Shown one piece after another: positions 13,591-64,000 of a stretch of 64,000 nt of DNA; the stretch's first letter is position 1, and every line of letters begins with the position of its first letter. A program made the translations under genes and the position numbers. The notes beneath the pieces are model-generated. The model had not been told where the DNA came from. It did not search any database and was given only the letters and a program-made list of their open reading frames with translations. The stretch is from assembly GCA_965205015.1 (NCBI GenBank), contig OZ242029.1:4736001-4800000 (forward strand), read 5' to 3'. The stretch comes from Candidatus Poribacteria bacterium. Its GTDB lineage: Bacteria; Poribacteria; WGA-4E; WGA-3G.

Positions 13591-13760
13591 TCAAGGCACC
13601 CAAACCTAAAGGATTGGGCTTGTGCTTCGTAGCAGTTCGCCTTCCGAGGAAGGACTTACATCTGCTCCACAGAGGGACCCAAGGCAGCCCTCAAGATGTT
13701 TATCGCAGCGTTTACGTCCCTGTCGCGGTGTGACCCACAGTCGGGGCATGTCCACTGCCG
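13570..13760 (-). ncRNA. Predicted TnpB omegaRNA/reRNA (scaffold overlaps the tnpB 3' end and right end; guide comes from the flank)
   Basis: Established TnpB architecture plus the right-end hairpin. The 5' boundary is approximate. Predicted guide UAGGAUACGGUUUGGUAGCG (13589-13570). Confidence 0.55.
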
Positions 13761-14870
13761 ATCTGAAAGAGAAAGGGTTTCGTTGTGATGCCCGCAATCT
13801 GAGCACGGTTTCGTTGTGGGAGTCCATTGCCCGACTTGAGAAAACTCACGATTATGTTTGAAACATTTGAACTTCAATATCTCAACAAACTGGTAAAAGG
13901 CGAGGTCAGAGACTTTGCGTCCCCAGAGGCGTTTCATCCCATCAAGGTTCAGCGTCTCGGTGACAACGTGGTCAAACCGCCGACACAGGTCAGTGGCGCG
14001 TTTGTAGTGCCAATCTCTGCGCTGGTTGGCGATCTTGCGATAAAGTCGTGCAAGTTGACGAACAGCACGCCACCAATTGCCAGATCCTTTCTGCTTACGG
14101 GAGACAGTTTTGTTGAGTTTTCGGAGTTGGTTCAAGGACTGTTTCAGAGGTTGTGGATGCTGAATCTTCTCACCCGTGCTGAGTGTCAGATAGGTGTCCA
14201 TACCGAAGTCTATCCCTACGCTCTTACCTGTAGCGGACATCACTTCTTTGGATATATCATCTGTCACGACGTAGAGCCACAATGTTCCAACGGCATCCCG
14301 ACCGATCTGAATATAACGGACGTTCCCCTCCCAATCGCGATGGGGGTGATACAAGATATTTCTACGGACAAACACAAACTTCTGTTTGGCTTCACTCCAT
14401 TGCTTGAAGGAGATACGGACAGTGCCTTTGGGAACTTTGGAAGGTTTTCCGTCTTCGCATTCTTGAAAAATCGCATACCCTGTTTGGAACTTCGCAGAGC
14501 GGTATTTGCTACGTTTTTTGAACTTCGGGGGACCGACGCGCCTGCCACGTCTACCGTTTTCAATCCAATCAAAGAACCGTTCATACCCGATATGGATACG
14601 GATAATCACGGCGTCAAGGGTATCACGGGGTATCCATGCCCAATGCTTATGGGTGCGTTCGAGCAACTTCGTCAGATGCGGTTGCAGGCGATACCGACCG
14701 GCGTATTTCCCATAGATGCGGTAATATCGCTTCTCCAGAGCAAGGAAGTGGTTATGGACATCGCCAAGTTCATCAAGCATGTTGCCGACGCGCATGTTTT
14801 GCGAGTGTTCGCGTATTTGGTACTTGTAGGTGCGACGCACACGCTTTTGTTTGCGCTTTCGCTTTTTCAT
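13656..14870 (-). CDS. tnpB: RNA-guided endonuclease TnpB
   Basis: RTYKYQI N-terminus, PKFKKR, RuvC-I GIDFG, RuvC-II ETL, Zn finger CSDC/CPDC, RuvC-III DRDVNAAINI. Confidence 0.95.
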   Translation of the reverse strand: MKKRKRKQKRVRRTYKYQIREHSQNMRVGNMLDELGDVHNHFLALEKRYYRIYGKYAGRYRLQPHLTKLLERTHKHWAWIPRDTLDAVIIRIHIGYERFFDWIENGRRGRRVGPPKFKKRSKYRSAKFQTGYAIFQECEDGKPSKVPKGTVRISFKQWSEAKQKFVFVRRNILYHPHRDWEGNVRYIQIGRDAVGTLWLYVVTDDISKEVMSATGKSVGIDFGMDTYLTLSTGEKIQHPQPLKQSLNQLRKLNKTVSRKQKGSGNWWRAVRQLARLYRKIANQRRDWHYKRATDLCRRFDHVVTETLNLDGMKRLWGRKVSDLAFYQFVEILKFKCFKHNREFSQVGQWTPTTKPCSDCGHHNETLSLSDRQWTCPDCGSHRDRDVNAAINILRAALGPSVEQM

Positions 14871-37857: not shown

Positions 37858-38601
37858 ATGAACCTATTTTTTAGAATCTTCTCTACAGTGATAGTCGCCT
37901 TACTCACGGCCTATATGATTGGCTGTGAGAGTTTCAACGAAGCGGAAGAACTCCCCGTCGTAGCATTCCTCAGCGCGACGCCACCAGAGAGTGAGGTTCC
38001 AGCAAATGGAACCATCACGCTTAACTTTGACAACGCGCTTGAAGATATAACAGTCCAAGCCAGTATCGGAAAAGTGGGGAAAACCATTATCTCCGGCAAA
38101 ACCGTTACGATCAACGGACCCTTCACACAGGGTGAACTCGCTTTTACCATCACTTGGGCAGATGGTGCGCAAACGCTCAATTATACCGTCACCGCTCCCG
38201 ATCCGAGCATCTCTACAGACACCGAAGACCCCATTAAACCACCAGAGCCGAAGCCGCAACTGACGAAGTCGCCTTTTAACGTCTCTGACAAAAACTTCAC
38301 AACACAGGTCATGGCGTCTGAATTGCCCGTCGTGGTCTATTTCTGGGCAGACTGGTGTCCGCCCTGCAAATGGATGGCACCCATTATCAAGGAGGTCGCC
38401 GCCGAAAACCGGGACACCTTCCTGATCGCGAAGTTAGACGTTGATAGAAATCAGCGGACCACAGAAAAATATCGGATTGAAGCGATTCCGACTTTCATCG
38501 TATTCAAAGATGGAAAGAAGATCGGACGGTTCGTAGGGGGAATGCCGAAAGCCCCGCTTCTCCAGCACATTCGTCAAGTGCTAAACGCTCAGGGAAATTA
38601 A
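37858..38601 (+). CDS. Lipoprotein with Ig-like module and C-terminal thioredoxin (WCPPC)
   Basis: Lipobox MIGC. FWADWCPPC, KLDVD, IPTF..FKDG. Confidence 0.88.
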   Translation: MNLFFRIFSTVIVALLTAYMIGCESFNEAEELPVVAFLSATPPESEVPANGTITLNFDNALEDITVQASIGKVGKTIISGKTVTINGPFTQGELAFTITWADGAQTLNYTVTAPDPSISTDTEDPIKPPEPKPQLTKSPFNVSDKNFTTQVMASELPVVVYFWADWCPPCKWMAPIIKEVAAENRDTFLIAKLDVDRNQRTTEKYRIEAIPTFIVFKDGKKIGRFVGGMPKAPLLQHIRQVLNAQGN

Positions 38602-38612
38602 GGAACTCAAGG

Positions 38613-39653
38613 ATGCCTAACCAAACTGTCAAATCGATGACGGGTCGTGAACGGGTGCTCGCTGCGCTCCGCAACGAACTCACTGACCGCACGCCTGTCT
38701 GTAATCCGACTTCCGTTGCTACGGTCGAACTGATGGATCTCGTCGACGCCCCCTTCCCACAGGCAAATCGAGAACCCGACCTCATGGCACGACTCGCTGC
38801 CACAGGATATACCGAACTCGGGTTCGATACGATCATGCCCGTTTTCACAATTATCCAAGAATCCAGCGCACTCGGTTGCAAAATTCAGTGGGAACAGAAG
38901 GACAACTGGCCCACCGTCAGAATGCGAGAACCGATCTGGGAAGACGTTGATGATATCGTTGTCCCGGACGACTTCTTAACGCATCCAGACACCCAATGCG
39001 TCCTTGAAGCGATTAAAATCCTGAAGAAAGAATACGGTGATGACGTCGCTATCATCGGGAAAACGATGGGACCCTGGTCGCTCGGCTACCACTGTTTTGG
39101 GGTTGAACCCTTCCTGTTGCTCTCACTTGATGATCCCGGCAAAACGAAACTCGCCCTTGATCGGATGAAGGAAGCCACTGTGCAATTCGGGGTCGCGCAA
39201 ATCGAGGCGGGTGCCGACGCACTGACGCTCCCCGACCACGCGACAGGTGATCTGGTCAGCGGTGAATACTACCAACGCTACCTTCGGGACCTCCACATCG
39301 AATTCGTTGAACGTATCCCTATCCCCTTAATCCTGCATATCTGTGGTCGCACTGTTGACAGGATGGAATACATCTCACAAACCGGTATGTCCGCCTTTCA
39401 CTTCGATTCCAAAAACGAACCGCAGGAATCGATGGATATCGTGAAAGAACGTATCGCCCTTGTTGGCAACATTAACAATCCCGAAACACTGTTTGCGAAA
39501 GGACCGGAAGACGTTAAAGCGGAGGTCATAAAAAACCTTGACGCGGGAGTCCCACTCATTGGACCCGAGTGCGCCATCCCCCTTCAGACAACCATCGAAA
39601 ACCTCCAAGCGATTCCAGAAGCCGTCCAAGAATGGCACCACGCACACCTATAA
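38613..39653 (+). CDS. MtaA/CmuA family methylcobamide methyltransferase (UROD superfamily)
   Basis: MTGRERVLAAL, DRTPV, ESSALGC, GPWSL, LHICG, GNINNP, PECAIP. Confidence 0.85.
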   Translation: MPNQTVKSMTGRERVLAALRNELTDRTPVCNPTSVATVELMDLVDAPFPQANREPDLMARLAATGYTELGFDTIMPVFTIIQESSALGCKIQWEQKDNWPTVRMREPIWEDVDDIVVPDDFLTHPDTQCVLEAIKILKKEYGDDVAIIGKTMGPWSLGYHCFGVEPFLLLSLDDPGKTKLALDRMKEATVQFGVAQIEAGADALTLPDHATGDLVSGEYYQRYLRDLHIEFVERIPIPLILHICGRTVDRMEYISQTGMSAFHFDSKNEPQESMDIVKERIALVGNINNPETLFAKGPEDVKAEVIKNLDAGVPLIGPECAIPLQTTIENLQAIPEAVQEWHHAHL

Positions 39654-39672: not shown

Positions 39673-40293
39673 ATGAAAAAAAATACGGTTTTACTGCTAA
39701 CGACCTGTTTAATCCTGACCAATTTTTTAACGATAGGCTACACACAAGCACCGAACCTTGAACACCTACAAGCCTCCGATGTCAATGCCGATGGCGTCGT
39801 AAACATCCTCGATCTGACGCTTGTCGCCAAAAACATCGGTACGACACCCACCGCAGATCAATCCCTGAACCCGGATGTCAATGCGGATGGAACGGTCAAT
39901 CCCCTCGATTTGACGCTCGTCGTGCGTTATTTTGGTAAGAGATCCGGTATCCCGTTTGAAGTCACGGATACAACTTTTGACGATATTGTCTTGGGTTCTG
40001 AACTGCCGATTGTGGTAGAATTTAAAGACGATAACTGACGCTTCTGCATAATGATGCGACCGGTGGTCGCAGCAGTCGCCTTAGAATATCGCGAGACGTT
40101 CAGTTTCGTCAAGTTGGATGTACCTACCCAACCCGAGAAAACATCTGAATATCGCATTCGTGGAACGCCGACTTATATCGTATTTAAGGATGGAGAGATT
40201 GCCCAAGGCTTCGCCGGCGCCATGCCTAAAGCTGCACTGGTGCAACGTATCCTTGGAAGTTTAGAGATTGAAGTAACTGAGGAGAAAAAATGA
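39673..40293 (+). CDS. Secreted dockerin-thioredoxin, probable selenoprotein (UxxC; in-frame TGA at 40036-40038), 206 aa
   Basis: ORFs 39538-40038 and 40051-40293 share a frame. Read-through gives VEFKDDN-U-RFC...KLDV...GTPT..FKDG. A SECIS-like hairpin follows. Confidence 0.85.
40055..40071 (+). promoter_or_regulatory. Candidate bacterial SECIS element
   Basis: TGCGACC-GGT-GGTCGCA: perfect 7-bp stem with a G-starting loop 23 nt after the UGA. Confidence 0.6.
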
Positions 40294-41984
40294 GAAAAAT
40301 CACCTTTTTATTTCTAACGACCTGTTTAATCCTCACGAATTTAACCGTAGGCTATACACAAGACGCGGATCTCGATACTTTAAGAGCCTCCGATGTCAAC
40401 GCTGACGGCGTGATAAACATCCTCGATTTGACGCTCGTCGCCGCAAGCATCGGCACGACACCCGCCGCAGATCAGCCCCTGAACCCAGATGTCAACGGGG
40501 ACGGTACCGTCAATATCCTCGACTTGACACGCGTCGCGAGTCACTTGGGTAAAACTGTTCCGCCGCCTGTCGCGTTCGTTGATGCGAATCCAGCAATCGG
40601 CAGACAGATCCCTGCGAATGCTACCATCATTGTAATTTTCGACATGTCGCCAGATAACGTTACAGTCAATGCGGGTGTCGCGACAACTGTTGATAAAACG
40701 GTAACAATCACAGGTCCCTTCCCTCCGGGTCCCTTTGATTTGACAATCGCTTGGACGGGCGGAAGCCAAACGCTCACCTACACTGTCGATATCCCAGATA
40801 TCGTGGCTCCCGAAGTTACCGGTGGCACCATCAGCGATGGCGATAAGGACCTTGACGCCGAAACGGTTAACACCAACGGACGGATCGAAGTTGAATTCAG
40901 CGAAGCGGTGAGTGGCAACATCGCACTGCAAACCGCAGCAGGTGAGGATGCGGGTTGGATCGGCAAAGTTGAAGGCAAAAAAGGGACGCTTGAATTGGTC
41001 AAAGGCAGAGAGATAGGCAACGAAACGACCTATGTTATAGCGGGACAGGTCAGCGACGCTGTAGGCAATTCAACCGATATTCGCATTACCTTTACGCTCC
41101 GTCCACCCGCGGCATTCGTTAGCGCACACCCAGCATCCCCATCCCAAATCGCTGTCGACGATACCATTACCGTGACTTTTGACAACCCTCCAGAAGACGT
41201 TAGGACGAGCACAGGGGATGCCACAACCACTGGGAAAACAGTGAAAATCACGGGTCCCTTCAAACCGGGTCCTCTCGTCTTGACGATCGTTTGGGCGGAT
41301 GGTATCCAAACCCTCAACTATACCGCCCATGTCCCGGATACCGAGGCACCCAAAATTACCAGTAGCAGCGTCAATAACGGGGATAAGGACGTTGACCCCG
41401 AAGCCCTTAACCTCCCTGGGCGGATCGAAGTTACCTTCAACGAAACAGTAACCGGCAACATCGCACTGCAAACCGCAGCGGGTGCTGATGCGGGGTGGCT
41501 CGGAAAAATCGCAGGAAAGAAAGGGACGCTTGAACTCGTCAGAGGCAAAGAACTCGGCAACGAGATAACCTATGTTATTGCCGGAAAAGTTAGTGATGCT
41601 GCGGGCAATTCAACCGACCTCAACATTCGGTTTACCACTTCCAGTAAAACCTCCGGGATCCCATTTGAAGTCACCGATGCGACGTTTAATAGCCTTGTGC
41701 TTAACTCAGAAGTCCCCGTCTTGCTTGAGTATGTAAAGGACGGCTGACCGTCCTGTCAACGGATGGCGCCAGTTGTCGCCCAAATTGCTTCAGAGAACCG
41801 GAACACATTTGCCGTCGCAAAACTGAATATTAAGAATGCCCGACAGACGCTCCGAAAATATCCGATTCGACAAACGCCGACCTATATAGTGTTCCAAGAC
41901 GGAAAACGGGTCGGAAGTTTCGCAGGTGTCATACCAAAAGCCCAGCTACTTCAGAAGATTCTTAGCGTCATAGACGTTGAATAG
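40290..41984 (+). CDS. Secreted dockerin-(Ig)n-thioredoxin, probable selenoprotein (UxxC; in-frame TGA at 41745-41747), 564 aa
   Basis: ORFs 40290-41747 and 41763-41984 share a frame. Read-through gives LEYVKDG-U-PSC...KLNI...QTPT..FQDG. Contains two tandem ~180-aa Ig modules. Confidence 0.83.
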
Positions 41985-42075: not shown

Positions 42076-43992
42076 TCACAAACGACTCCGATGATAAAAC
42101 CACCACTCCAACAGGAGCAGCAGGAGTGCCGCGAGCGCAAACCAACGCCATATCTCCTGCACCATCGGTTGCAATCCGCCTTCTACATCCGTTGAAGGCG
42201 CTGCAACCGTCGCCGTTGGAGAATGCGACAGTGCCGATTCCGTAGCGTTCAGCAGATTGACCGTGAATCGCTCAAGCTGCACATCATCCGCAAAAAGGGT
42301 GTAGACCCCAATCTGATCCGTCTCGGTAAACATTGAATTCGCCAATCCGACCGTTGTTCCATCAGGCTTCTGCACGTGAAGTGAGCGTCCCTCACGTGTC
42401 AACCCGACGCGCACCTGTTCTCCGGTTCGGAAGGCGTGTCGGGTTCCACTTCCTTGAGACGCAATCGGCTGCAGCGGGGCAGTTCCTCCCTCAAACCACG
42501 CTAAACACTGATAGATGAATTGCGGTCCATCGGGGACAGTCAGCGCAAAGGCAGAAATTTCCGGGTTAAACGCATCGAACTCAAAAACAAGGAGCCGGGT
42601 GTCGGATCTGCTACCGATCCATATCAATACCCCCTTCTCCGTTTCAACAAGCGACTGTCCCCAGAGTGGCAATACTCGGTGCATAGACTCGCTTACCTGT
42701 AATCCCTGCAGCGACACACTCTCCATGAGCGGGTGATTCCCATCCTCTTTGAGAACCCGCACAGGTGTCCTCTCGGTTTCAACAATCGGAGCCCCTTCTC
42801 CAATGAAGGGCAGATTGTCACCGGGCGAGATGAAGATCAGACCCGTTGCAGAGGGTACCTCAGACGCTTCATATAGTATGGAGGGTCCAAACGCCTCGCG
42901 TCCGGCGAGCGTACCCCCATCGAAAATTGCGACATCCGCATCACCAATGCCGTGATAATCCGCTGGATCAACCACATAGAGTTTCACGTGATCTCCATAG
43001 GATTTCAAAAGGTCGGGTAGTAACGATTTTCGATTGTCACTCACCAGCAAAATCCGTAGTGAGGGGACAGCGGATAGGAGCGCCGAAGCCCTGTCATCAA
43101 GCGGAAAATCGTCATCTACACCCAGGTGGACGCTGAGAACCTTCCCCTCTAAACCGTTCGGATCCCCTGAAAACAGGACTGATTTGGTCGCATTCGGAGG
43201 GATAGACACCGTTCTATCATCCAGCGGAACCGCTTCCACCGCCAATTGAACGTCGAATTCTTTGGGGCTCTCCGTAAAATTCTGAATACCCATGAGGACT
43301 TCGTAGCGATCCGCTAATATCTCAACGCTGAACCGAACGATACCGACATTCTCCGCATTCCCACCCACTCCGATTTTCTGCACCGGCAGCGATATATCCG
43401 GTAGGTTTTCAAACGTCCCACTGATAAAGACGATCTTATCTTGGGGTGAATCCGCATAGCGGGTAGCGGCATCAAACACAGGACGGAGATGTCGCGGGGC
43501 ATGCGTCTGCGCAATATCCTCTATCGCTTGATGCAGTTTCGAGGTATCCGTTGTAAAAGCTTGTTGGATATGCGTATCAGCGGAATTCGTCACCATGAGC
43601 ATCATCCCACCGCTCGCGGCAACCTCTTTAATATATTTCTGTGCTTCCTGTTTTGCGAGTGCGAGTCGAGGGGATCCCATCTCTGTTGACGACATCCTCG
43701 CGGAATTATCAACGATGAGAATCGCTTTGCCGGGCATGAATCCGGGTCTATGCAGCGCAGGGCGCGCAACGCTGAGTGTAAGAAGCAACAAAAACAGCAC
43801 CTGGAGCAGGGGGAGGAGTAGGTTCCGGAGTCGTTGGAAAGGGACATTTGCTCTCCGATCTTCGTCAGTGGAGCGCCAAAATAGAATGCTGGGGACGAGG
43901 TGGGTGTGGCGGCGTAATTTCAGAAAATGAAGTGCCACCACGATTGGAATAACACCCAGTAGATAAAACGCGGCAGGGTTTAGGAATTGCAT
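42076..43992 (-). CDS. BatA domain / von Willebrand factor A protein
   Basis: MQFLNP...LHFLK...VPS N-terminal double TM. DNSARM degenerate MIDAS. LLLLEWW C-terminal TM. Confidence 0.85.
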   Translation of the reverse strand: MQFLNPAAFYLLGVIPIVVALHFLKLRRHTHLVPSILFWRSTDEDRRANVPFQRLRNLLLPLLQVLFLLLLTLSVARPALHRPGFMPGKAILIVDNSARMSSTEMGSPRLALAKQEAQKYIKEVAASGGMMLMVTNSADTHIQQAFTTDTSKLHQAIEDIAQTHAPRHLRPVFDAATRYADSPQDKIVFISGTFENLPDISLPVQKIGVGGNAENVGIVRFSVEILADRYEVLMGIQNFTESPKEFDVQLAVEAVPLDDRTVSIPPNATKSVLFSGDPNGLEGKVLSVHLGVDDDFPLDDRASALLSAVPSLRILLVSDNRKSLLPDLLKSYGDHVKLYVVDPADYHGIGDADVAIFDGGTLAGREAFGPSILYEASEVPSATGLIFISPGDNLPFIGEGAPIVETERTPVRVLKEDGNHPLMESVSLQGLQVSESMHRVLPLWGQSLVETEKGVLIWIGSRSDTRLLVFEFDAFNPEISAFALTVPDGPQFIYQCLAWFEGGTAPLQPIASQGSGTRHAFRTGEQVRVGLTREGRSLHVQKPDGTTVGLANSMFTETDQIGVYTLFADDVQLERFTVNLLNATESALSHSPTATVAAPSTDVEGGLQPMVQEIWRWFALAALLLLLLEWWFYHRSRL

Positions 43993-44472: not shown

Positions 44473-45255
44473 TTAGAAATCGGTTTTCAATTCTCCCCAT
44501 GTCACCGCCAACTTGTCGCGCGCTTCAACGGCAAGCACCACCGGTACACTCAGTTCCATCGATTCCTTAATCTCTTCTTCAGTCAACGCCTTGGCGTATA
44601 TGACGACCTCATCGATGATCGCATCTTCGACTTTGTGGAGGGTCGGATTTTCGCCTGCCCCGATGTAAATCGCCGCCTCTTTGAACTTGGGCCACTTAAA
44701 ATTCTCTGGTTGTGATCCGATGAATTCACCGTTGACATAGATCTTGCCATCTTTCCCATCGGCAACCATAACGTAGTGGTACCACTCTTTCAATTCAAAT
44801 TTGAAGTTCGCGAGGCTTTTGTCGGCATGATGCCCGGCATCCCAAAACGGGTTGAAATTTGGGTTCACCATCGTACGGAACTCGCAACAGCCACCGGCAG
44901 CGGCTTCAATCGAGATGATTCCATCGTATGAGGCGTGCTGATTCAGGAAAAACCACGCTTCCATCGTGATCTCTGTCTTCTCCCCGATCGGAACGATGAA
45001 GTCATTCTGTGCCATTTGGACGACACCACCGTTGAGATGAATGCCATCATTGAATGCTCCCTTTTTAAGCGCACCCTTTCCATTCAATTCTGCATCATTG
45101 CCGTTGCCAGAATCGTCGATGACCTTATTACCATTGAGTTTATCAAAAGAGTAATAGACGAGGATGTCCTCTTCCTCGATAGCGTGAGAGAGACTCACCG
45201 CACATACACAGATCGCCGTAAGTCCCAACAGGAATAGATTTTTACGCATTTTCAT
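44473..45255 (-). CDS. Secreted LamG domain protein with C-terminal KLAVTWGELK motif
   Basis: YYSFD, DDSGNGN, TMEAW, EWYHY, IYVNG, IDEV..Y.KAL. Confidence 0.88.
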   Translation of the reverse strand: MKMRKNLFLLGLTAICVCAVSLSHAIEEEDILVYYSFDKLNGNKVIDDSGNGNDAELNGKGALKKGAFNDGIHLNGGVVQMAQNDFIVPIGEKTEITMEAWFFLNQHASYDGIISIEAAAGGCCEFRTMVNPNFNPFWDAGHHADKSLANFKFELKEWYHYVMVADGKDGKIYVNGEFIGSQPENFKWPKFKEAAIYIGAGENPTLHKVEDAIIDEVVIYAKALTEEEIKESMELSVPVVLAVEARDKLAVTWGELKTDF

Positions 45256-55694: not shown

Positions 55695-56462
55695 CTAAAG
55701 GTCAGTGGCGATCCGAAAACCGACGCTATGAATCCCTCGGATGGGTTCATACGCCGCACGGTTCGCACACCTTGCAGCGAACTCTCCACGTGCAATCCAC
55801 GCCCCCCCGCGAATCACCTTCCGGCGTCCTTCACTCGCGCCCAACGGATTCTCCGCTGGTGAGTACTTATACGTCTCCATGTGAAACCAATCGAAACACC
55901 AATCGTAGGCGTTGCCCGCCATATCGTAGCACCCGTAAGGACTCACGCCCGATGGATAACTCCCAACCGGCATCAGTCGCTTATTCCCCGATTCCGATGT
56001 ATTCGCTCGACGCGCATCCCACATATCGCCCCACGGATACTCCCGAGCATCCGTGCCACGCGCCGCCTTCTCCCATTCCGCCTCCGACGGCAAACGATAT
56101 TCCATACCTTCACGTTCACTCAGCCACGTCAAAAAATTCGTCACATCGTGCCAACTCACCCCGACGACAGGAAACTCAGGTGCGTTGAGATGCGCATCGT
56201 TATGGAACAATGGTTGCGGGTATCCTGTCTCCTCGACGAACTGCGCGTATTGTGCATTCGTGACCTGATACGTGCCGATGGCGTAAGCATCCAGCAGAAC
56301 ATTCCGTTGCGGTTCCTCTGGATCCGTCTTCCGCCATTCAGTCGGAATCGTCCCCATTATGAATGCCCCAGCGGGGATATGGATTAAAGGGTACTTGAGT
56401 CTTTCGATGTGCATGATAGGTGGGTAGATCCTCTGAAACAAAAAGTATCGGAAACGCTTCAT
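55695..56462 (-). CDS. Formylglycine-generating enzyme (SUMF1/FGE-sulfatase) family protein
   Basis: VTNAQY, PVVGVSW, RLPSEAEWEKAARG, DMAGN..DW, RGG.W, GFR. Start may be 56414. Confidence 0.92.
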   Translation of the reverse strand: MKRFRYFLFQRIYPPIMHIERLKYPLIHIPAGAFIMGTIPTEWRKTDPEEPQRNVLLDAYAIGTYQVTNAQYAQFVEETGYPQPLFHNDAHLNAPEFPVVGVSWHDVTNFLTWLSEREGMEYRLPSEAEWEKAARGTDAREYPWGDMWDARRANTSESGNKRLMPVGSYPSGVSPYGCYDMAGNAYDWCFDWFHMETYKYSPAENPLGASEGRRKVIRGGAWIARGEFAARCANRAAYEPIRGIHSVGFRIATDL

Positions 56463-56570
56463 TCCAGTATAACATACCCTTACATCTTTCGCAATCCTCC
56501 AATATTATTACATCACTTCCGCAATGACACATAATTTGACAACGCATCATGAATATATTATACTTAAGAT

Positions 56571-56924
56571 ATGCAAATCACCGCCAGAGAAGTCCGAAAC
56601 TATATCACACCAAACGGACGTAATCCGTTCCGAGAATGGTCGACACAACTGCGAGATAAAAAAGCACGAGCGAACATCCAAAGACGCATTGCGCGCCTGC
56701 AGGAGGGAAATTTTGGTGATTTTAGAAGGTTAAATAGCGGTTTATGTGAACTAAGGATCAACTACGGACCAGGATATCGAGTTTATTTTCGTATGTTTGC
56801 CTCTCATATCATTATTCTCCTCTGGGAAGGACAAAAAAGAACGCAGCAGCGAGATATTACGAGAGCTCAAAACTATTGGAACGAAATAAGGAGCAGACAC
56901 AATGAACACAGAAACCCTCCTTAA
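56571..56924 (+). CDS. Type II TA toxin, RelE/HigB-like addiction module killer protein
   Basis: PFREW, RIARL..GNFGD, ELRINYGPGYRVYF, KRTQQRDI..A..YW. Confidence 0.9.
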   Translation: MQITAREVRNYITPNGRNPFREWSTQLRDKKARANIQRRIARLQEGNFGDFRRLNSGLCELRINYGPGYRVYFRMFASHIIILLWEGQKRTQQRDITRAQNYWNEIRSRHNEHRNPP

Positions 56925-57234
56925 GCAAACGACCCGTTTTAGAGATGACCTTCTGAAAGACCTCGCAGACATAGAGTTCGCGATGTACTATTTGGAAGCC
57001 GCCTTATCAGATTATAAAGAAGATGGTAATACAGAAGCACTCTGGACAGCCCTGTATGATGTTGTAGCGGCACAGGGCGGAATTGGAAAACTTGCTGAAA
57101 GAGCAAAGGTGAATCCTAAGCATCTTAACGATATACTCGCCTCTAAACAGGCGCCGCGCTTAGATAATTTGCAAAACATTCTTTCTGGACTCGGATTTCA
57201 GATTCGCTTGGAATTCGCTGAAAGCGAACTGTAA
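56902..57234 (+). CDS. Addiction module antidote protein (HTH antitoxin)
   Basis: Overlaps the toxin. YLEAAL, AL..V..AQGGI..LAE, PRLD....IL..LG. Confidence 0.85.
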   Translation: MNTETLLKQTTRFRDDLLKDLADIEFAMYYLEAALSDYKEDGNTEALWTALYDVVAAQGGIGKLAERAKVNPKHLNDILASKQAPRLDNLQNILSGLGFQIRLEFAESEL

Positions 57235-57286
57235 TACCCATAGCTTACATCCGATTGCTCGTTCCCGGATGAGCTTCGCCCTAAAC

Positions 57287-57688
57287 ATGAAGAAGGATAA
57301 AACAATCACACACGATGAACTCCGTCCAGAGTATGATTTGAGAAAGTTGCGAGTGCGGAAGTTTGGTCCTGCGCGTAAGCAGTTCGGTAACTTTATCAAG
57401 TTAGAACCTGATGTCGCTGCGGTGTTCCCTGACGATGTTGCTGTTAACGAGGCACTGCGATGTCTGATCCAAGAAGCCGAAGAAAACAGAAATACGTACT
57501 CTCGCCGCTTACCAATGAAGATTTTAGACACCGTCCCTAAGGATATTGATAATTCTATTGTCAAGTTAGAACCTGATGTTGTCAAGGCATTTCCAGACGC
57601 TGCGTCCGTGAACAAGGCACTGCGATGTTTGATCCAAGACTCCAATGAAAACGGCACAGTATTACCTCACACCGACCATGATGCTTAA
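57287..57688 (+). CDS. BrnA-like antitoxin-type protein with duplicated domain
   Basis: DELRPEYDL, then KLEPDVAAVFPD..AVNEALRCLIQ and KLEPDVVKAFPD..SVNKALRCLIQ. Confidence 0.65.
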   Translation: MKKDKTITHDELRPEYDLRKLRVRKFGPARKQFGNFIKLEPDVAAVFPDDVAVNEALRCLIQEAEENRNTYSRRLPMKILDTVPKDIDNSIVKLEPDVVKAFPDAASVNKALRCLIQDSNENGTVLPHTDHDA

Positions 57689-57759
57689 CGGACAAAACAA
57701 TCATGAGAAGCAATAACCTTCATCCAAATTGCCTTCTCCAGCCTCAAAACTAAGGGAAC

Positions 57760-58653
57760 GTGAATATGGAAAGGGAAGAGATCATCCATAGATTTCAGAA
57801 CTTGAATGTATGGAAAAGAGGACATAAAGTAGCACCCCACAAGCCTCTTTTAGTCTTGTACGCAATTGATAAATTGCGACGTGGAGAAAACCAACTTATA
57901 CCATACACAGAAGTAAAGGAGAAACTTTCAGAATTACTGATCAAATTTGGAACAAGCAAGTCGGAACCCCGTCCTCACTATCCGTTTTGGCGCCTACGCC
58001 AAGATAATGTTTGGAAAGTAACCGACGATCATCTTATTAAGGAAACCGACAGCGGAGATGCCCACGTCACTGACCTGAAGCTCCACGGTGTCTCTGGAGG
58101 ATTTCACAAAGCAATTGCTCATCACCTACAGAACGATTTCAGCCTTACTTTAGAAATAAGCGAAAGCATGCTTGATCATTTTCGTTATTCAAAACACAAG
58201 GATATTTCACAGGCTGTTGGGATTGAGGACCTGTCTCATGTGCCCAAACGACAAAGACGAGAGTGGAACTTTCCCAAAAACGTACGGAAAGCCTATGAAT
58301 ATAAATGTGCAGTTTGTGGTTTTGATGTAAAATTGCACCACCGACATGTTGCGCTAGAAGCCGCACATATTCAGCCCCTTAAAAAAGGTGGACCTGATAT
58401 AGCAGAAAATGGCTTGGCTCTTTGTTCACTACACCATGAACTATTTGATCGTGGAGTTTTCACGTTGTCGGAGCAATTAAAAGTACTCGTGTCTAAGTAC
58501 GCAAATGGGTCAACGGGCTTTGATAAATGGTTGATGCGTTTTCATGGAAAGAAAATCAATCTTCCGCAGAGTCGAATGTATTACCCTCGCATCAGCTTTA
58601 TAGACTGGCATTTCAGAGAAGTATTCAAAGACCCTTATCGCGAAAAAACTTGA
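57760..58653 (+). CDS. Phosphorothioated-DNA-binding (SBD)-HNH restriction endonuclease-like protein
   Basis: APHKPLL and YPFWRL sulfur-binding-domain motifs. CAVCG, LEAAHI, NGLALCSLHH.FDRG HNH. Confidence 0.8.
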   Translation: MNMEREEIIHRFQNLNVWKRGHKVAPHKPLLVLYAIDKLRRGENQLIPYTEVKEKLSELLIKFGTSKSEPRPHYPFWRLRQDNVWKVTDDHLIKETDSGDAHVTDLKLHGVSGGFHKAIAHHLQNDFSLTLEISESMLDHFRYSKHKDISQAVGIEDLSHVPKRQRREWNFPKNVRKAYEYKCAVCGFDVKLHHRHVALEAAHIQPLKKGGPDIAENGLALCSLHHELFDRGVFTLSEQLKVLVSKYANGSTGFDKWLMRFHGKKINLPQSRMYYPRISFIDWHFREVFKDPYREKT

Positions 58654-58679
58654 CATTTAACACAAATTTGTGCTAAAAT
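58650..58679 (+). promoter_or_regulatory. sigma70 promoter (extended -10) for leader 2 and the ssp-like operon
   Basis: TTGACA at 58650, TGcTAAAAT ending 58679. ATG 6 nt downstream suggests a leaderless transcript. Confidence 0.65.
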
Positions 58680-58685
58680 CTAAAT

Positions 58686-58838
58686 ATGGAAAATCGGGAT
58701 ACAAATACCACAGCTAAAACACTACACCTGCTTAACCGCAATCGCTGCTCATGGCGATTCTTGATGCCCTTAAAGTCTGCTTGTATACAAGATTTTAACA
58801 AGTCGACTCGCCCCCCCCCCCCACTTTACAAACGATAA
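58686..58838 (+). CDS. 50-aa upstream leader peptide ending PPPPLYKR* (candidate attenuator)
   Basis: MENRDTNTTAKTLHLLNRNRCSWRFLMPLKSACIQDFNKSTRPPPPLYKR*. C12 tract at 58811-58822. Confidence 0.55.
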   Translation: MENRDTNTTAKTLHLLNRNRCSWRFLMPLKSACIQDFNKSTRPPPPLYKR

Positions 58839-59021
58839 GCAATATACTTCATAAGACATTGACAGCATCTGCCAATGTTCTGTTTCCGCGCCCGCGTGTC
58901 CTCTCTCGCGATGATCCTCTATGCGGGCTGTTTTTGTTGTCCTATCTTCTACCGTTACTCTCAATTTCTCTCTCATGTTGCTGCTTGCTCCAGAGGTTGC
59001 TACATTTTGGAGGAACGAAAT

Positions 59022-59957
59022 TTGAGTAACGCCTACACAACCGCACCTCAGACGATTCATCCATCTTTTTCGGGACACCAAACGTTTCCCTTCCGGTATA
59101 CCTGGCTCAAAAAAGGCGTTGATGCCGTGACAGAAAATCCGACCGTCTTTTCATCGGAGAACGCCTCTGTCAGTTTAGGTGTTGGAAAAAACATGGTCAG
59201 TTCTATTCGGCATTGGTGTCGAGTATCAAGACTCATTGAGACAATAAAGCCAGTACCGTATCAGCGCGGGCAATTTGCCCCCACTGCACTCGGAAAAGCC
59301 ATTTTTGACGATAAAGAAGGATTTGACCCATATCTTGATGATCCAGCCACGCTGTGGCTAATTCATTGGCAAATTGCAACAAATACCGATCCGGCAACCG
59401 CGTGGTATTGGGCATTTAATGTTTCAAGGGGCAACCAATTCACACCCCAAATATTCGCACGAGAACTGTCCAAATGGGCACAGGAAAAGAAACGATCCAT
59501 GCGGTCGGTTTCTGATAATACACTCCGACGAGATGTCAACTGCTTTATTCGAACCTACTGTCAGTCCCGTCACACCGATGTCGTTGTCGAGGAGACCCTT
59601 GATTGCCCTCTCGTTGAACTCAATTTAATTGCCGAATTGCCAGACGGTAATGGATATGAATTCCAGCGAGGTGATAAAAAAACACTACCAATCGAAACCG
59701 TTGCGTGGGCACTGGATACGTTTTGGCAGCTTTACTTCCCACGGCAAGAAGCACTCTCGTTCTCAGAATTGATGTATGCGCCATCAAGTCCGGGACGGGT
59801 TTTCAGGTTAGACGAAGACACAATGACAGTATATCTTGAGAACCTCGCACAACTCACGGAAGGTGCGTTGCAATATGATGAAACAGCAGGTCTAAAGCAG
59901 GTCTATCGACATAGAGATTTAAACCAGATGGAACTTTTAAAGGAATATTATGGGTAA
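59022..59957 (+). CDS. DUF4007 family protein (SspB-like)
   Basis: FSGHQTFPFRYTWLKKG, LGVGKNMV.SIRHW, DPYLDD..TLWLIHW, CPLVEL. GGAGG RBS before TTG at 59022. Confidence 0.88.
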   Translation: MSNAYTTAPQTIHPSFSGHQTFPFRYTWLKKGVDAVTENPTVFSSENASVSLGVGKNMVSSIRHWCRVSRLIETIKPVPYQRGQFAPTALGKAIFDDKEGFDPYLDDPATLWLIHWQIATNTDPATAWYWAFNVSRGNQFTPQIFARELSKWAQEKKRSMRSVSDNTLRRDVNCFIRTYCQSRHTDVVVEETLDCPLVELNLIAELPDGNGYEFQRGDKKTLPIETVAWALDTFWQLYFPRQEALSFSELMYAPSSPGRVFRLDEDTMTVYLENLAQLTEGALQYDETAGLKQVYRHRDLNQMELLKEYYG

Positions 59958-62900
59958 CGTCCGTTTGTCAGAACTTTTTCACATTACAGAACGTTTTCAG
60001 CGTTCGGTCCATCTGGCGCGCGATTTTTATACAGAAAACGCTTTAGATGGCTACGTCGTGACTGCCAAAGCACGGGAAACCCTCACTCGGCTCATCACAG
60101 CACAAGAAAACGGCGCGACATCAAGAGCCTGGTCTCTTACCGGACCCTACGGTTCAGGGAAATCCGCATTTGCGCTGTTCGCTGCAAAACTACTCGGAAA
60201 TTCTGAAGCACCGACAACCCGTCAGGCACTCGATCTGCTGGAACATGAAGATCCCTCGCTATATGAACGATTTATCAGCATAAACGGCAATGGAAATGGG
60301 ACCCCATCTGGATTCTGTCCGGTGCTTATCTCTGGCGAACGCGCACCAATCATACTTGCCCTTCTACGCGGTTTAGAACACGGACTCAAGACTTTCGGAA
60401 TTTCGTCCTCTAGTGCGCTTCAACGGAAGATCAGAAATCTGTTGAAAATCGCCGCAAACGGCACACCGCCACATGCATCTGAAATCACTTCGCTTTTCGA
60501 GTCGGCGGCGCGCACCGTTCGGAAAAACGGCGGCACTGGTCTATTGTTAGTAATTGATGAACTCGGCAAGTTCCTTGAGTACACCGCGCAATCTCCAGCA
60601 AAAGGCGATGTGTTTGTCCTACAAACTCTCGCCGAATTTGCAACACGTAGCGATCAGACCCCGCTATTTTTGCTGACGATTCTGCATCAGGCTTTTGAAC
60701 AATACGCAAACAAGATAGCAAAATCGCAACGTGAAGAGTGGACAAAGGTCCAAGGACGGTTTGAAGACATCGCCTTTGTAGAACCTGCAGAACAGACCAT
60801 TCGGTTGATCGCTGCCGCTATCCAGAATACATTAACTGACAAAACAGAAAACCTATCTATAGTACCCAAACTTTATCCAACTGAATTAAATCTCACACCC
60901 CACCAATTTGAGGACACTGAATTCGATCAACTCCTCCAAAACTGCTTACCACTCCACCCGACCATAGCACTTATTATCGGTCCGATCTTCAGACGATTCG
61001 CCCAGAATGAGCGTTCCCTTTTCGCCTTCCTTAACGCAAGTGAACCTTATGGACTCCAAGACTTTCTGTCAAACCAGCATTATAATGGCAGCGTGCTACC
61101 GATATTCTCGATCGCCGACCTATATGACTATCTCAATACCACCATAGGGAATAGATTAGCCGACTCAAGCGTAGGTAATAGGTGGGTGGAGATTGAAATG
61201 GCTATTAACGGAATCACTGATCCATCACCGACAACCATTAAACTCATTAAGACGATAGGGTTACTCGGTATTACCGGAGAAGTAAGCATTAATCTGAAAG
61301 CCTCAAAGCACGTTCTCCGTTATGCCTTAGATGACTGCACTGAAGGATTCACAGAGAAATTTGAAACCGCACTGGATACGCTAACAAGACGCAAGATCGT
61401 TATCCACCGTCCCCGAAACGACACCTATGCCCTTTGGGAAGGCAGTTACATTGACATTGAAGCCAAACGCCATGAGGCGGAACAACATCTTGATCCAAAC
61501 CAAAGTCTCACAACTTATCTTTCAACGCTCGCGCCCCCTCGACCTCTCATCGCCCGCCGACACCTGTTCGAGAAGGGGACACTCCGCTATTTCGCCCTTC
61601 GTTACACCGACGCTGAAAATTTCGACGCGTCGCTCAGTGAACCACTCGGCGATGCAGACGGACTCGTTCTCTATGCCCTCCCCGCAGACGAACATGAAGG
61701 TAGGCACCTCATTGAAAAAGCGAAGGCCAAAGCCGTTGTAAACCGTAAAGAGATCCTGATTGCAATCCCGCATTCCACCAGCTTTCTGCACGACGCTGTT
61801 ACCGAACTCGCCTGTTTACAGTGGATCTCGGAAAACACACCGGAACTCGACGGCGATCCAGTCGCAAGGCGAGTCCTTTCACGCCGACGGTTAGAAGCGG
61901 AACAAAATGTAACCGAGCAGTTCGCAGCCATCTTTGGTAACGACAGCGAGAATACTTGCAAATGGTTTCACAAAGGACAAAAAGTAAATATCAATTCTCA
62001 ACGCGAAAGAAATGAACATCTATCAAAAATCTGCGATGTGGTTTACCACGAAACCCCCATTATTCTGAATGAACTGATCAATCGGCGTAAAATCTCCGGC
62101 ACTGTAACAACCGCACGCAAGAGATTAATTCAAGCGATGCTCGAAAACGGCGATCAAGAACACCTCAGCATTACTGGCTATCCTCCTGAAATGAGTATCT
62201 ATCGTTCCCTCTTATGGAACACAGGGATACACCGCGAAGTTGAAGGTGTATGGGGATTCCACCCACCACATCCAGAGGATAAAAACGAAATATCGCGCAC
62301 ATGGCAAGCGATCGAGACGTTTCTTGGCAAATGCGAAGGTGAGAGACAACCTGTCGAGAAACTCTATGAAAACCTGATGGCACCACCCCTGGGCGTGCGA
62401 AACGGTCCTCTACCTATCCTCTTGTGTGCCGCGATGCACCATTACAAAACAGAAATAGCACTTTATGAAAACGGCTCCTTTATCGCAAATTGGTCAATGC
62501 CGGTCTTTGAAAGGCTCCTTAAAGCACCGCAACAATTTGAGCTGAAACGGTTTCGGATGACGGGTATCCGCTCGGATCTGTTTTCACAGTTTTCAGAGGT
62601 ATTCAATCAATCGACAGACACCCAAAAACCCGATCTGTTGACAGTCATCACACCGCTCATGCGCGCCATCGCACAACTCCCGAAGTACACTTTGGGGACA
62701 CAAGAATTGCGTGATAACGCGAAAAATCTCCGTAAAGTTGTGCTGAATGCGCGTGAACCTGACGAACTCCTCTTCAAACAATTGCCGGAGGCTTTTGGCT
62801 TTTCTGCCTTTAGCGAGGAGGCGGCAACAGATTCAAGGACTATTTCGGAATTTTTCAGGACACTCCAAGATGCATTGTCCGAGTTAGAACAGGCGTATGA

Positions 62901-63366
62901 CATCCTACTGAATTCGGTTGAACAACTGCTTGCAGAGGCGTTCAGTTTAACACCGACGGCAGAAAAACTCCGCGTAGAACTGGTCAAAAGAGCCGAACCT
63001 TTGTTAGCGGTAACAATTGAAATGGATCTTAAAGGATTTTTAATCCAAGTTTGTAGCGGCGGACACGCTTTCAGCAGTTGGCTTGAAGCCATCGCGACCT
63101 ATCTCGCCAAAAAACCGCCTCCAGCGTGGATAGAGGCAGATAAAGCCCAATTTGAGATTAATCTCTCTCAAATCGCAAGAAAGTTTCGGCACTTTGAAGC
63201 GGTATCCTATGAAAAAGGGAAGCACATAGTCGACGAACAAACCGCTGCCATAGAACACGAGATCAAAAAAGTTTTCGACAAATTCAACGTAGACAACAAC
63301 CCGGAACTCCATATCGCAATTTTAGCACGAATTTCACAAAAATGGATACAACACCTTGACGAATAG
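59950..63366 (+). CDS. Large P-loop ATPase (SspC-like)
   Basis: Walker A GPYGSGKS, Walker B LLVIDELGKFLE, EW.KVQGRF, PLHP, QNERSLF.FL. Overlaps the DUF4007 stop. Confidence 0.85.
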   Translation: MGNVRLSELFHITERFQRSVHLARDFYTENALDGYVVTAKARETLTRLITAQENGATSRAWSLTGPYGSGKSAFALFAAKLLGNSEAPTTRQALDLLEHEDPSLYERFISINGNGNGTPSGFCPVLISGERAPIILALLRGLEHGLKTFGISSSSALQRKIRNLLKIAANGTPPHASEITSLFESAARTVRKNGGTGLLLVIDELGKFLEYTAQSPAKGDVFVLQTLAEFATRSDQTPLFLLTILHQAFEQYANKIAKSQREEWTKVQGRFEDIAFVEPAEQTIRLIAAAIQNTLTDKTENLSIVPKLYPTELNLTPHQFEDTEFDQLLQNCLPLHPTIALIIGPIFRRFAQNERSLFAFLNASEPYGLQDFLSNQHYNGSVLPIFSIADLYDYLNTTIGNRLADSSVGNRWVEIEMAINGITDPSPTTIKLIKTIGLLGITGEVSINLKASKHVLRYALDDCTEGFTEKFETALDTLTRRKIVIHRPRNDTYALWEGSYIDIEAKRHEAEQHLDPNQSLTTYLSTLAPPRPLIARRHLFEKGTLRYFALRYTDAENFDASLSEPLGDADGLVLYALPADEHEGRHLIEKAKAKAVVNRKEILIAIPHSTSFLHDAVTELACLQWISENTPELDGDPVARRVLSRRRLEAEQNVTEQFAAIFGNDSENTCKWFHKGQKVNINSQRERNEHLSKICDVVYHETPIILNELINRRKISGTVTTARKRLIQAMLENGDQEHLSITGYPPEMSIYRSLLWNTGIHREVEGVWGFHPPHPEDKNEISRTWQAIETFLGKCEGERQPVEKLYENLMAPPLGVRNGPLPILLCAAMHHYKTEIALYENGSFIANWSMPVFERLLKAPQQFELKRFRMTGIRSDLFSQFSEVFNQSTDTQKPDLLTVITPLMRAIAQLPKYTLGTQELRDNAKNLRKVVLNAREPDELLFKQLPEAFGFSAFSEEAATDSRTISEFFRTLQDALSELEQAYDILLNSVEQLLAEAFSLTPTAEKLRVELVKRAEPLLAVTIEMDLKGFLIQVCSGGHAFSSWLEAIATYLAKKPPPAWIEADKAQFEINLSQIARKFRHFEAVSYEKGKHIVDEQTAAIEHEIKKVFDKFNVDNNPELHIAILARISQKWIQHLDE

Positions 63367-63378
63367 AGGGAGAAAAAC

Positions 63379-64000
63379 ATGGAACAAAAAACACGTCACC
63401 TGCTCGGTCTCTCCGGTGGTAAAGACAGTTCCGCGCTTGCCGTTTACATGCGGGACAGGGTGCCAGAGATGGAATACTTCTTCTCTGACACGGGTAAGGA
63501 ATTGCCAGAGACTTACGCGTTTCTGGATCGATTAGAGGTATTCCTCGGCAAACCGATTGCACGTCTCAACATGGAGCGGGATGCCAGCGAGAACCGCGAT
63601 TTCGATCACTGGCTGACGCTCTACGGAGGCTTGTTGCCGTCGTCTCAAGTGCGATGGTGCACTGTTAACCTTAAGATAAGACCTTTTGAGGAATACGTCG
63701 GCGAAGACAAGGCGTATAATTACGTCGCCATCCGTGCCGATGAAGACCGTGTCGGTTATAAACCGCTGAAAACCGCCGCCCTCCGCAACATCGAGCCGAA
63801 GTACCCGTTCAAAGAGGATGGCATCACCAAAGAGGATGTCTACCGAATTCTGGAGGAAAGCGGTCTCGGTCTACCTGATTATTACAACTGGCGGACGCGT
63901 TCGGGGTGTTATTTCTGTTTTTTCCAGCGCAAATCCGAGTGGGTGGGACTCTTAGAGCAGCATCCAGACCTCTTTGAACTCGCCAAGGCATACGAGAAAT
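63379..64000 (+). CDS. PAPS reductase family protein (SspD/DndC-like), 3' truncated
   Basis: Absent from the ORF track. MEQKTRHLLGLSGGKDS, DTGKE, RWCT, RSGCYFCFFQ. Confidence 0.9.
   Translation, partial: MEQKTRHLLGLSGGKDSSALAVYMRDRVPEMEYFFSDTGKELPETYAFLDRLEVFLGKPIARLNMERDASENRDFDHWLTLYGGLLPSSQVRWCTVNLKIRPFEEYVGEDKAYNYVAIRADEDRVGYKPLKTAALRNIEPKYPFKEDGITKEDVYRILEESGLGLPDYYNWRTRSGCYFCFFQRKSEWVGLLEQHPDLFELAKAYEK

Follow-up and report, generated by a model that had tools for sequence, protein, structure and literature searches.

A candidate exported dockerin-thioredoxin selenoprotein of Candidatus Poribacteria, divided in annotation at its presumed selenocysteine codon

Gene structure and domain organization

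A stretch of 64,000 nucleotides from a Candidatus Poribacteria genome (assembly GCA_965205015.1, contig OZ242029.1, positions 4,736,001 to 4,800,000 of the forward strand) contains a gene with an in-frame TGA that standard annotation records as two pieces. This stretch is referred to here as the window, its own numbering is used for all coordinates, and the interrupted gene is called gene 1. The coding sequence occupies 39673..40293 on the plus strand and comprises 206 codons followed by a terminal TGA (40291-40293), which shares the letters ATGA with the start codon of the next gene. When the one internal TGA (codon 122, 40036-40038) is read as selenocysteine (Sec, U), positions 39673..40290 (+) specify a single protein of 206 residues. 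Standard open reading frame (ORF) calling splits the same sequence into 39538/39673..40038 and 40051..40293, and public annotation cuts the gene in two because the presumed Sec codon reads as a stop. We consider it highly probable that gene 1 encodes one 206-residue selenoprotein in which UGA-122 is recoded as Sec and whose product would be exported, docked through a dockerin and active in redox chemistry.

The predicted protein begins with a signal-peptide-like N-terminus (39673..39747, +), which was recognized by inspection and consists of MKK, a hydrophobic stretch of ~17 residues and then GYTQA. This leader, MKKNTVLLLTTCLILTNFLTIGYTQA, is conserved among the orthologues, with what appears on inspection to be a polar c-region after the hydrophobic stretch, and AlphaFold models its residues 3-21, at low confidence, as a helix. 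A type I dockerin follows at residues 35-87 (39775..39933, +; Dockerin_1, PF00404, E 2.5e-14), with a score of 53.6 bits against a Pfam threshold of 22.9. It comprises two calcium-loop repeats, DVNADGVVNILD and DVNADGTVNPLD, which form DxNxDGxxNxxD loops at positions 39778 and 39874. Export of the protein is suggested by the leader together with the dockerin.

The third recognizable part of the protein is a thioredoxin domain at residues 96-193 (39958..40251, +; PF00085, E 3.2e-18, 66 bits; gathering score 23.5) that runs across the TGA, and the match extends over model positions 4-101 of 103. The local sequence around codon 122 is VVEFKDDN-U-RFC-IMMRP, in which the TGA (40036..40038, +) takes the place of the leading Cys in CxxC, the site of the attacking residue. 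An earlier reading of the window, made from the sequence alone and referred to below as the sequence-only reading, had proposed that the TGA splits a thioredoxin fold exactly at its nucleophilic Cys, and the span of the PF00085 match agrees with that proposal. The resolving Cys of U-R-F-C is encoded by the TGC at 40045..40047 (+) and is invariant in all 61 distinct orthologous sequences.

An AlphaFold model built on an alignment of relatives (alignment A1, described below) has a mean predicted local distance difference test (pLDDT) score of 89 and places U122 after strand 113-118, at the opening of helix 123-138. The top matches of this model in the PDB are thioredoxins, and 2trx_A is superimposed with a template modeling (TM) score of 0.93 by target and a root-mean-square deviation of 0.9 A over 104 columns with 34% identity. 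The predicted domain thus resembles Escherichia coli TrxA (2trx) in its fold and in the retained cis-Pro context G-T-P-T. TrxA, unlike the predicted gene 1 product, is a cytoplasmic, Cys-based protein of a single domain, and the gene 1 domain differs from classical thioredoxins in its U-x-[F/Y]-C motif and in the lack of a Trp before the active site. NCBIfam has no dedicated selenoprotein model, and none of its models covers gene 1; the only hit of this type was TIGR02187, which scored 19 bits in the gene that follows (gene 2), far under its cut-off of 185.

Conservation of the TGA and pairing with cysteine

One genome per species was scanned, and 78 related loci were obtained, of which 75 are titled Poribacteria and three 'uncultured bacterium'. 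A TGA at the codon 122 site followed by 78-92 open in-frame codons is found in 70 of the 78. A further locus (L074, 10361-10400) has the TGA and a frame that collapses five codons later, which may reflect an insertion, decay of this copy or a join made in assembly. Five loci (L043, L057, L061, L062 and L065) have TGT or TGC at the site, and two (L076 and L078) carry no gene of the gene-1 type. Among the 76 loci with such a gene, therefore, the site is occupied by TGA in 71 and by TGT or TGC in five.

The protein database was compared through its best 120 clusters at 90% identity. Eighty-five of these are 120-143 residues long and have ...EF[KT]xxx as their last residues, stopping one residue short of the site; they include the 121-residue fragment of the window itself and NCBI entries named 'hypothetical protein'. 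Another 34 clusters are full length (179-221 residues), each with CxxC at the corresponding position, and the remaining one is a C-terminal fragment. Correspondingly, alignment A1 has Cys in the U122 column in 17/17 full-length relatives, and 13/13 shortened ones stop one residue earlier. The sequence-only reading had claimed a Sec/Cys pairing on the basis of a paralogue at 37858, in which FWADW-C-PPC is aligned with the active site of gene 1, and had expected annotation to break the gene into fragments. Both claims are upheld by these clusters, and the conservation of the TGA in orthologues, which had been set beforehand as a test that could refute the reading, was found at the level given above.

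These observations bear directly on the possibility that the TGA is a nonsense mutation or a sequencing error and that the gene is a pseudogene. Standard gene calling does end at the TGA, and the fragment of 121 residues is what the database holds for the window. However, the TGA is shared across species by 71 of the 76 orthologous loci, the same end residue recurs in 85 separate 90%-identity clusters, and the frame behind the TGA is open and evolves like coding sequence, as is detailed in the following section; a pseudogene is hardly credible on this evidence. Because 71 of the 76 orthologous loci carry the TGA, it is judged to be conserved and not a private mutation, and Sec appears to be kept in the gene-1 family across most of the sampled Poribacteria species.

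The history of the site was approached with a quick maximum-likelihood tree of the 76 orthologues and four more distant Cys forms, the rooting of which depends on the chosen outgroup. The Sec forms make up four large groups. The Cys forms occur at three points, at two of which they are nested within or adjacent to Sec groups; the outgroup is of the Cys type. At least three Sec/Cys changes are needed on this tree, two of which are forced by well-supported branches, and the simplest reading would be that Sec was gained once and afterwards lost again through reversions to Cys.

The window holds 60 in-frame TGAs flanked by at least 60 open codons upstream and at least 40 downstream, and only those at 40036 and 41745 give UxxC in a recognizable domain. 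The other 58 were considered as Sec sites, and none is credible, with no UxxC redox motif in a recognizable domain.

Coding signal behind the TGA

Coding patterns were evaluated in 71 sequences (the 70 loci and the window) over the 72 codons 3' of the TGA. Frame 0 is open after the TGA in 71/71 sequences; frame 1 is closed in 71/71 and frame 2 in 70/71. Pairwise differences at codon positions 1, 2 and 3 number 39,953, 31,894 and 88,254, so that 55% of them lie at the third position over these 72 codons; the third-position share in the 30 codons before the TGA is 58%. The stop codons of the 37 Pfam-supported genes of the window are TAA in 21, TAG in 12 and TGA, the rarest, in 4. A global reassignment of TGA was considered and is ruled out, because TGA terminates 4 of these 37 genes as well as gene 1 itself and is thus otherwise a stop in this genome.

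A coding signal on both sides of the TGA could also be sought in two polypeptides, namely a 121-residue protein with only the dockerin and a C-terminal piece of 80 residues that starts from the ATG at 40051. An ORF with this start (40051..40293) does exist, and since Sec insertion is usually inefficient, a shortened product is probably also made. However, the three codons between the TGA and this ATG, which is the first possible internal one, hold the invariant resolving Cys, whose codon varies synonymously between TGC and TGT, and a separate start at 40051 is disfavored because an invariant Cys with such variation precedes it. The Cys forms, in which the Met of this ATG is an internal residue, conserve it to the same degree, and the second polypeptide would be a thioredoxin cut at its active site, without strands 1-2 and the nucleophile. 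We regard the two-polypeptide arrangement as highly improbable, and a single protein read across the UGA as the preferred interpretation of the coding signal.

A SECIS-like hairpin downstream of the TGA

In bacteria, SelB with Sec-tRNA binds a hairpin in the message and delivers Sec at the UGA. Gene 1 has a hairpin that resembles such a selenocysteine insertion sequence (SECIS) at 40052..40074 (+), with a 7-bp stem (40055-40061/40065-40071) in which all seven pairs are perfect, a GGU loop (40062-40064) and two outer pairs. The distance from the TGA is 16 nt to the stem and 23 nt to the loop. For the 29-nt segment the folding energy is -11.6 kcal/mol (z = -2.64), a value matched by 2 of 200 shuffles. 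The bacterial SECIS (bSECIS) model as set out in PMC13188914 has a loop of 3-9 nt, a stem of 4-16 bp, a G in the first two loop positions, a spacing of 16-37 nt and a minimum free energy of -7.5 kcal/mol or lower, and the window hairpin falls within every one of these constraints (GGU loop, 7 bp, 23 nt, -11.6 kcal/mol). The 7-bp hairpin with a G-starting loop 23 nt downstream, and its absence from the Cys paralogue, had both been described in the sequence-only reading. The two descriptions hold: the homologous place in the paralogue has no hairpin, with a fold of -4.3 kcal/mol and z = 0.15.

Comparison of the orthologues shows partial covariation in the hairpin. Across the 61 distinct orthologous sequences, 81% of the pair cells are paired, compared with 30-61% when the 3' partners are slid, and the observed covariation score was reached by 0 of 500 shuffles. 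Compensatory change is seen at two of the seven pairs, 22-34 (CG 20, AU 14, GU 2) and 23-33 (GC 31, AU 2, CG 2, GU 2). The loop residues G28 and U29 are invariant in all Sec orthologues, and the Cys forms have AUU or ACC in place of the loop GU. When the 47 distinct 29-nt segments of the orthologues were folded with G28 and U29 forced unpaired, G28-U29 lay in the apical loop in 47/47 and the mean energy was -7.55 kcal/mol; the mean at the same place was -2.6 for five Cys orthologues and -2.8 for five Cys paralogues.

Evidence for and against selenocysteine insertion

The capacity for Sec synthesis and insertion in this phylum can be judged from published genomes. Table S4 of Slaby et al. 2017 (PMC5649159), whose column order was checked against the WD40 row, lists COG1921 SelA, COG3276 SelB and COG0709 SelD in three Poribacteria genomes, with SelA/SelB/SelD counts of 2/1/1 in bin70, 4/1/2 in bin44 and 2/1/1 in Ca. 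Poribacteria WGA-3G. Locus L028, with its TGA orthologue, comes from the last of these genomes. The same paper reports SelA and SelB to be enriched in sponge symbionts, and according to a 2026 paper (PMC13582414), group 4 hydrogenases have Sec variants in nine phyla, Poribacteria being one of them.

A number of results weigh against the interpretation of gene 1 as a tethered selenoprotein. The 60-nt segment after the TGA as a whole folds no better than its shuffles (z = -0.64), and the window has no match in Rfam at the gathering threshold. In the orthologues, 19% of the pair cells lack pairing, with breaks at 22-34 and 23-33 in 25 and 24 of the 61 sequences, and RNAalifold returned an empty consensus structure for these 61 sequences, because the stem occurs in at least three registers (with the loops GGU, UGU and AGUU). 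The energy of -7.5 kcal/mol is reached by only 22 of the 47 distinct segments, the segments of one clade, the L026 type, attain no more than -0.7 to -6.4 kcal/mol, and the Cys controls are few (5 + 5). With respect to the machinery, Pfam detected no SelA, SelB or SelD among the 46 ORFs of the 64-kb window, and ARAGORN detected no tRNA genes, tRNA-Sec included, in the window or in L001-L060 (~20 kb each). The presence of Sec machinery, the lack of which the sequence-only reading had named as a refuting outcome, is supported for the phylum by the three Poribacteria genomes of PMC5649159, all of which list SelA, SelB and SelD; no sel gene was found within the window itself. For the tether, Pfam detected no cohesin domain among the 46 window ORFs or the 37 neighbor ORFs of four loci. 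Finally, the thioredoxin domain scores 64.5 bits with the TrxA equivalog model of NCBIfam (TIGR01068), below its cut-off of 96.8, and because of this score the domain is classed as a divergent member of the thioredoxin family and not as a TrxA orthologue. With these points taken into account, the hairpin is taken as a real but variable SECIS.

Recoding of the UGA need not in itself involve selenium, as the codon might be read through as Cys or another standard residue by a Cys-charged tRNA that resembles tRNA(Sec) or by a near-cognate tRNA. Sequence alone does not reveal whether Sec or some other residue is inserted when a UGA is recoded, and five orthologues do use Cys. Such read-through is nevertheless very unlikely in view of the SECIS-like hairpin with its conserved G-U loop at the canonical distance, the use of TGA as a stop elsewhere in this genome, and the occurrence of SelA and SelD, which are required for Sec synthesis, in 3/3 of the Poribacteria genomes listed in PMC5649159. 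Insertion of Sec thus remains the reading that we prefer for UGA-122.

The sister gene and the cysteine paralogue

The gene directly downstream (gene 2; 40290..41984, +), whose ATG overlaps the stop of gene 1 as ATGA, is a second selenoprotein candidate composed of a dockerin, immunoglobulin-like (Ig-like; Big_5) repeats and a thioredoxin domain. Its in-frame TGA is located at 41745-41747 in the motif U-PSC, and a TGA is present in 45/45 genes of this sister type (the loci and the window). The associated hairpin (41765-41780, +) is extremely conserved but weak in energy (-5.3 kcal/mol, z = 0.02), and its G28-U29 is spaced from the UGA exactly as in gene 1. In this hairpin 99.5% of the cells are paired, and pair 23-34 occurs as CG 31, UG 8, UA 3 and AU 1. 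Degenerate third codon positions are invariant at 5/5 places inside the hairpin versus 0/15 outside it in 44 distinct sequences, and this synonymous invariance therefore indicates a constraint on the RNA and not on the protein.

Upstream of gene 1, the Cys paralogue mentioned above (37858..38601, +) begins like a lipoprotein and continues with an Ig-like segment and a thioredoxin domain with WCPPC, the Cys codon being at 38356 in the aligned motif FWADW-C-PPC. Its Ig-like segment resembles those of the sister gene. The locus thus includes three thioredoxin paralogues, all predicted to be exported, inside 4 kb.

Genomic context

The neighborhood of gene 1 was compared between the window and four loci from different clades. 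The conserved order comprises a PQQ-like propeller gene, a beta-lactamase-family gene, a gene without an assigned family, an MtaA/CmuA-family methyltransferase gene and the dockerin-thioredoxin genes, followed in the convergent direction by a BatA/VWA gene, a small ORF and a Laminin_G_3 gene. The downstream part of this arrangement is common to 4/4 loci and the upstream part to 3/4. The methyltransferase (38613..39653, +), of the methylcobamide:coenzyme M (CoM) type, scores above the NCBIfam subfamily cut-offs and is also the upstream neighbor in L028, L020 and L043; a member of the MtaA/CmuA family is unexpected in a sponge symbiont. The BatA/VWA ('aerotolerance') membrane protein and the Laminin_G_3 protein are encoded at 42076..43992 (-) and 44473..45255 (-), with the small ORF included in this group, and are convergent to the thioredoxin genes. 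Neither DsbD/CcdA nor thioredoxin reductase was found near the gene in the window or in the four loci.

Candidatus Poribacteria are symbionts of marine sponges, and the WD40, LRR, FGE-sulfatase and 3-keto-disaccharide hydrolase genes of the window fit this phylum. Elsewhere in the window, 13656..14870 (-) is an IS605 OrfB/TnpB-like gene (OrfB_IS605 with a Cas12f1-like TNB domain). The region 56000..64000 has a low GC content (0.449 at 56-60 kb) and includes genes for an HNH_2 endonuclease, a DUF4007 protein and a PAPS-reductase-domain protein together with an ORF of 1138 residues without a Pfam match; it looks like an acquired defense or DNA-modification island.

Discussion

In the mechanism that we infer for gene 1, from selenium insertion and export to cohesin binding, substrate and redox direction, UGA codon 122 would be recoded as selenocysteine by the bacterial SelB/Sec-tRNA(Sec) system, recruited by the small hairpin that starts 16 nt past the UGA and exposes G-G-U in its apical loop (G-U in all orthologues). 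A cleavable signal peptide of the secretory Sec type would take the product out of the cytoplasm, and the type I dockerin may then bind a cohesin-type partner on the envelope or on a scaffold protein. The thioredoxin domain would carry out thiol/disulfide (selenylsulfide) exchange on extracytoplasmic substrates, with Sec122 as the predicted attacking nucleophile on substrate disulfides or oxidants and Cys125 resolving the selenylsulfide. The downstream dockerin-thioredoxin, with its presumed Sec at the same position, presumably works alongside the gene 1 product.

The position of the UGA also allows a variant of this scheme in which selenium acts as a switch: when selenium is scarce, termination at the UGA would produce a free dockerin that occupies cohesin sites, and when it is present, the full enzyme would be displayed. 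The UGA directly follows a complete dockerin and precedes the catalytic helix, so that the shortened product would be a folded module, and the sister gene has the same layout. This switch is compatible with the selenoprotein interpretation, but it is unlikely, since the position of the UGA is fully accounted for by the role of the catalytic residue. The shortened product with only the dockerin is likely a by-product of the proposed Sec insertion.

Thioredoxins with UxxC are an established group of selenoproteins. A UxxC thioredoxin (Trx, PF00085) is among the characterized prokaryotic selenoproteins in PMC13188914, which refers to Kim et al. 2015, and Table 2 of the Global Ocean Sampling (GOS) selenoproteome (PMC2398784) lists 'Trx-like 1' (COG0526, UxxC) with 321 sequences. 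Like these proteins, the gene 1 product would have Sec instead of the leading CxxC cysteine, homologues with Cys and a SECIS right after the UGA. Unlike them, it carries a signal-peptide-like leader and a type I dockerin in the same chain as the thioredoxin domain, with Ig-like repeats added in the sister gene, and its family has so far been found only in Poribacteria. Other thioredoxin-fold selenoproteins that are exported (a thiol:disulfide oxidoreductase, DsbA-like and TlpA-like proteins; PMC13188914, PMC2398784) share with gene 1 a UxxC or UGC redox motif and an action outside the cytoplasm, which is predicted here; they belong to other subfamilies (Prx-like, DsbA, TlpA), and none is described with a dockerin in the passages of these papers that were compared. 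Type I dockerin proteins, cellulosomal and non-cellulosomal, likewise have two calcium-loop repeats (PF00404), but in gene 1 the cargo is a redox domain and not a carbohydrate-active enzyme, and no cohesin was found nearby.

The sequence-only reading did not know this architecture from described selenoproteomes, and the literature agrees with it as far as it was covered: no dockerin-bearing selenoprotein was found in open-access papers and preprints, although subscription papers or supplements could hold one. Among papers and preprints of the same kind, those on selenocysteine or selenoproteins in Poribacteria do not describe the gene, and nothing relevant was found on dockerins or cohesins of Poribacteria. 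What is known, then, is the UxxC thioredoxin selenoprotein, and what is new is the combination of leader, dockerin and Sec-thioredoxin; the addition is incremental because the UxxC thioredoxin is already an established selenoprotein family. Understanding of the mechanism of Sec insertion is unchanged by it.

The finding has several consequences for annotation and for the study of these symbionts. A systematic error is corrected, as at least 85 database clusters record the gene as a 'hypothetical' dockerin fragment of ~120 residues, and the prokaryotic selenoproteome gains an architecture of leader, dockerin and Sec-thioredoxin. At least 47 natural SECIS variants in one coding context become available for the study of the tolerance of SelB. 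For work on the symbiosis, gene 1 provides a concrete selenoprotein, predicted to be extracytoplasmic, that can be sought in sponge metaproteomes.

A broader and more tentative idea is that a cohesin-dockerin scaffold presents selenoenzymes of Poribacteria outside the cytoplasm, with tandem Sec-thioredoxins whose start and stop codons overlap, one of them on Ig-like spacers, forming a phylum-wide 'redox display' module; we regard this as possible, though it is not the outcome that we would expect most. If it were true, the targets would be the disulfide-rich host matrix, symbiont surface proteins or oxidants in the sponge mesohyl. These would then be the first dockerin-bearing selenoproteins, and selenium would be a nutrient important to the sponge symbiosis.

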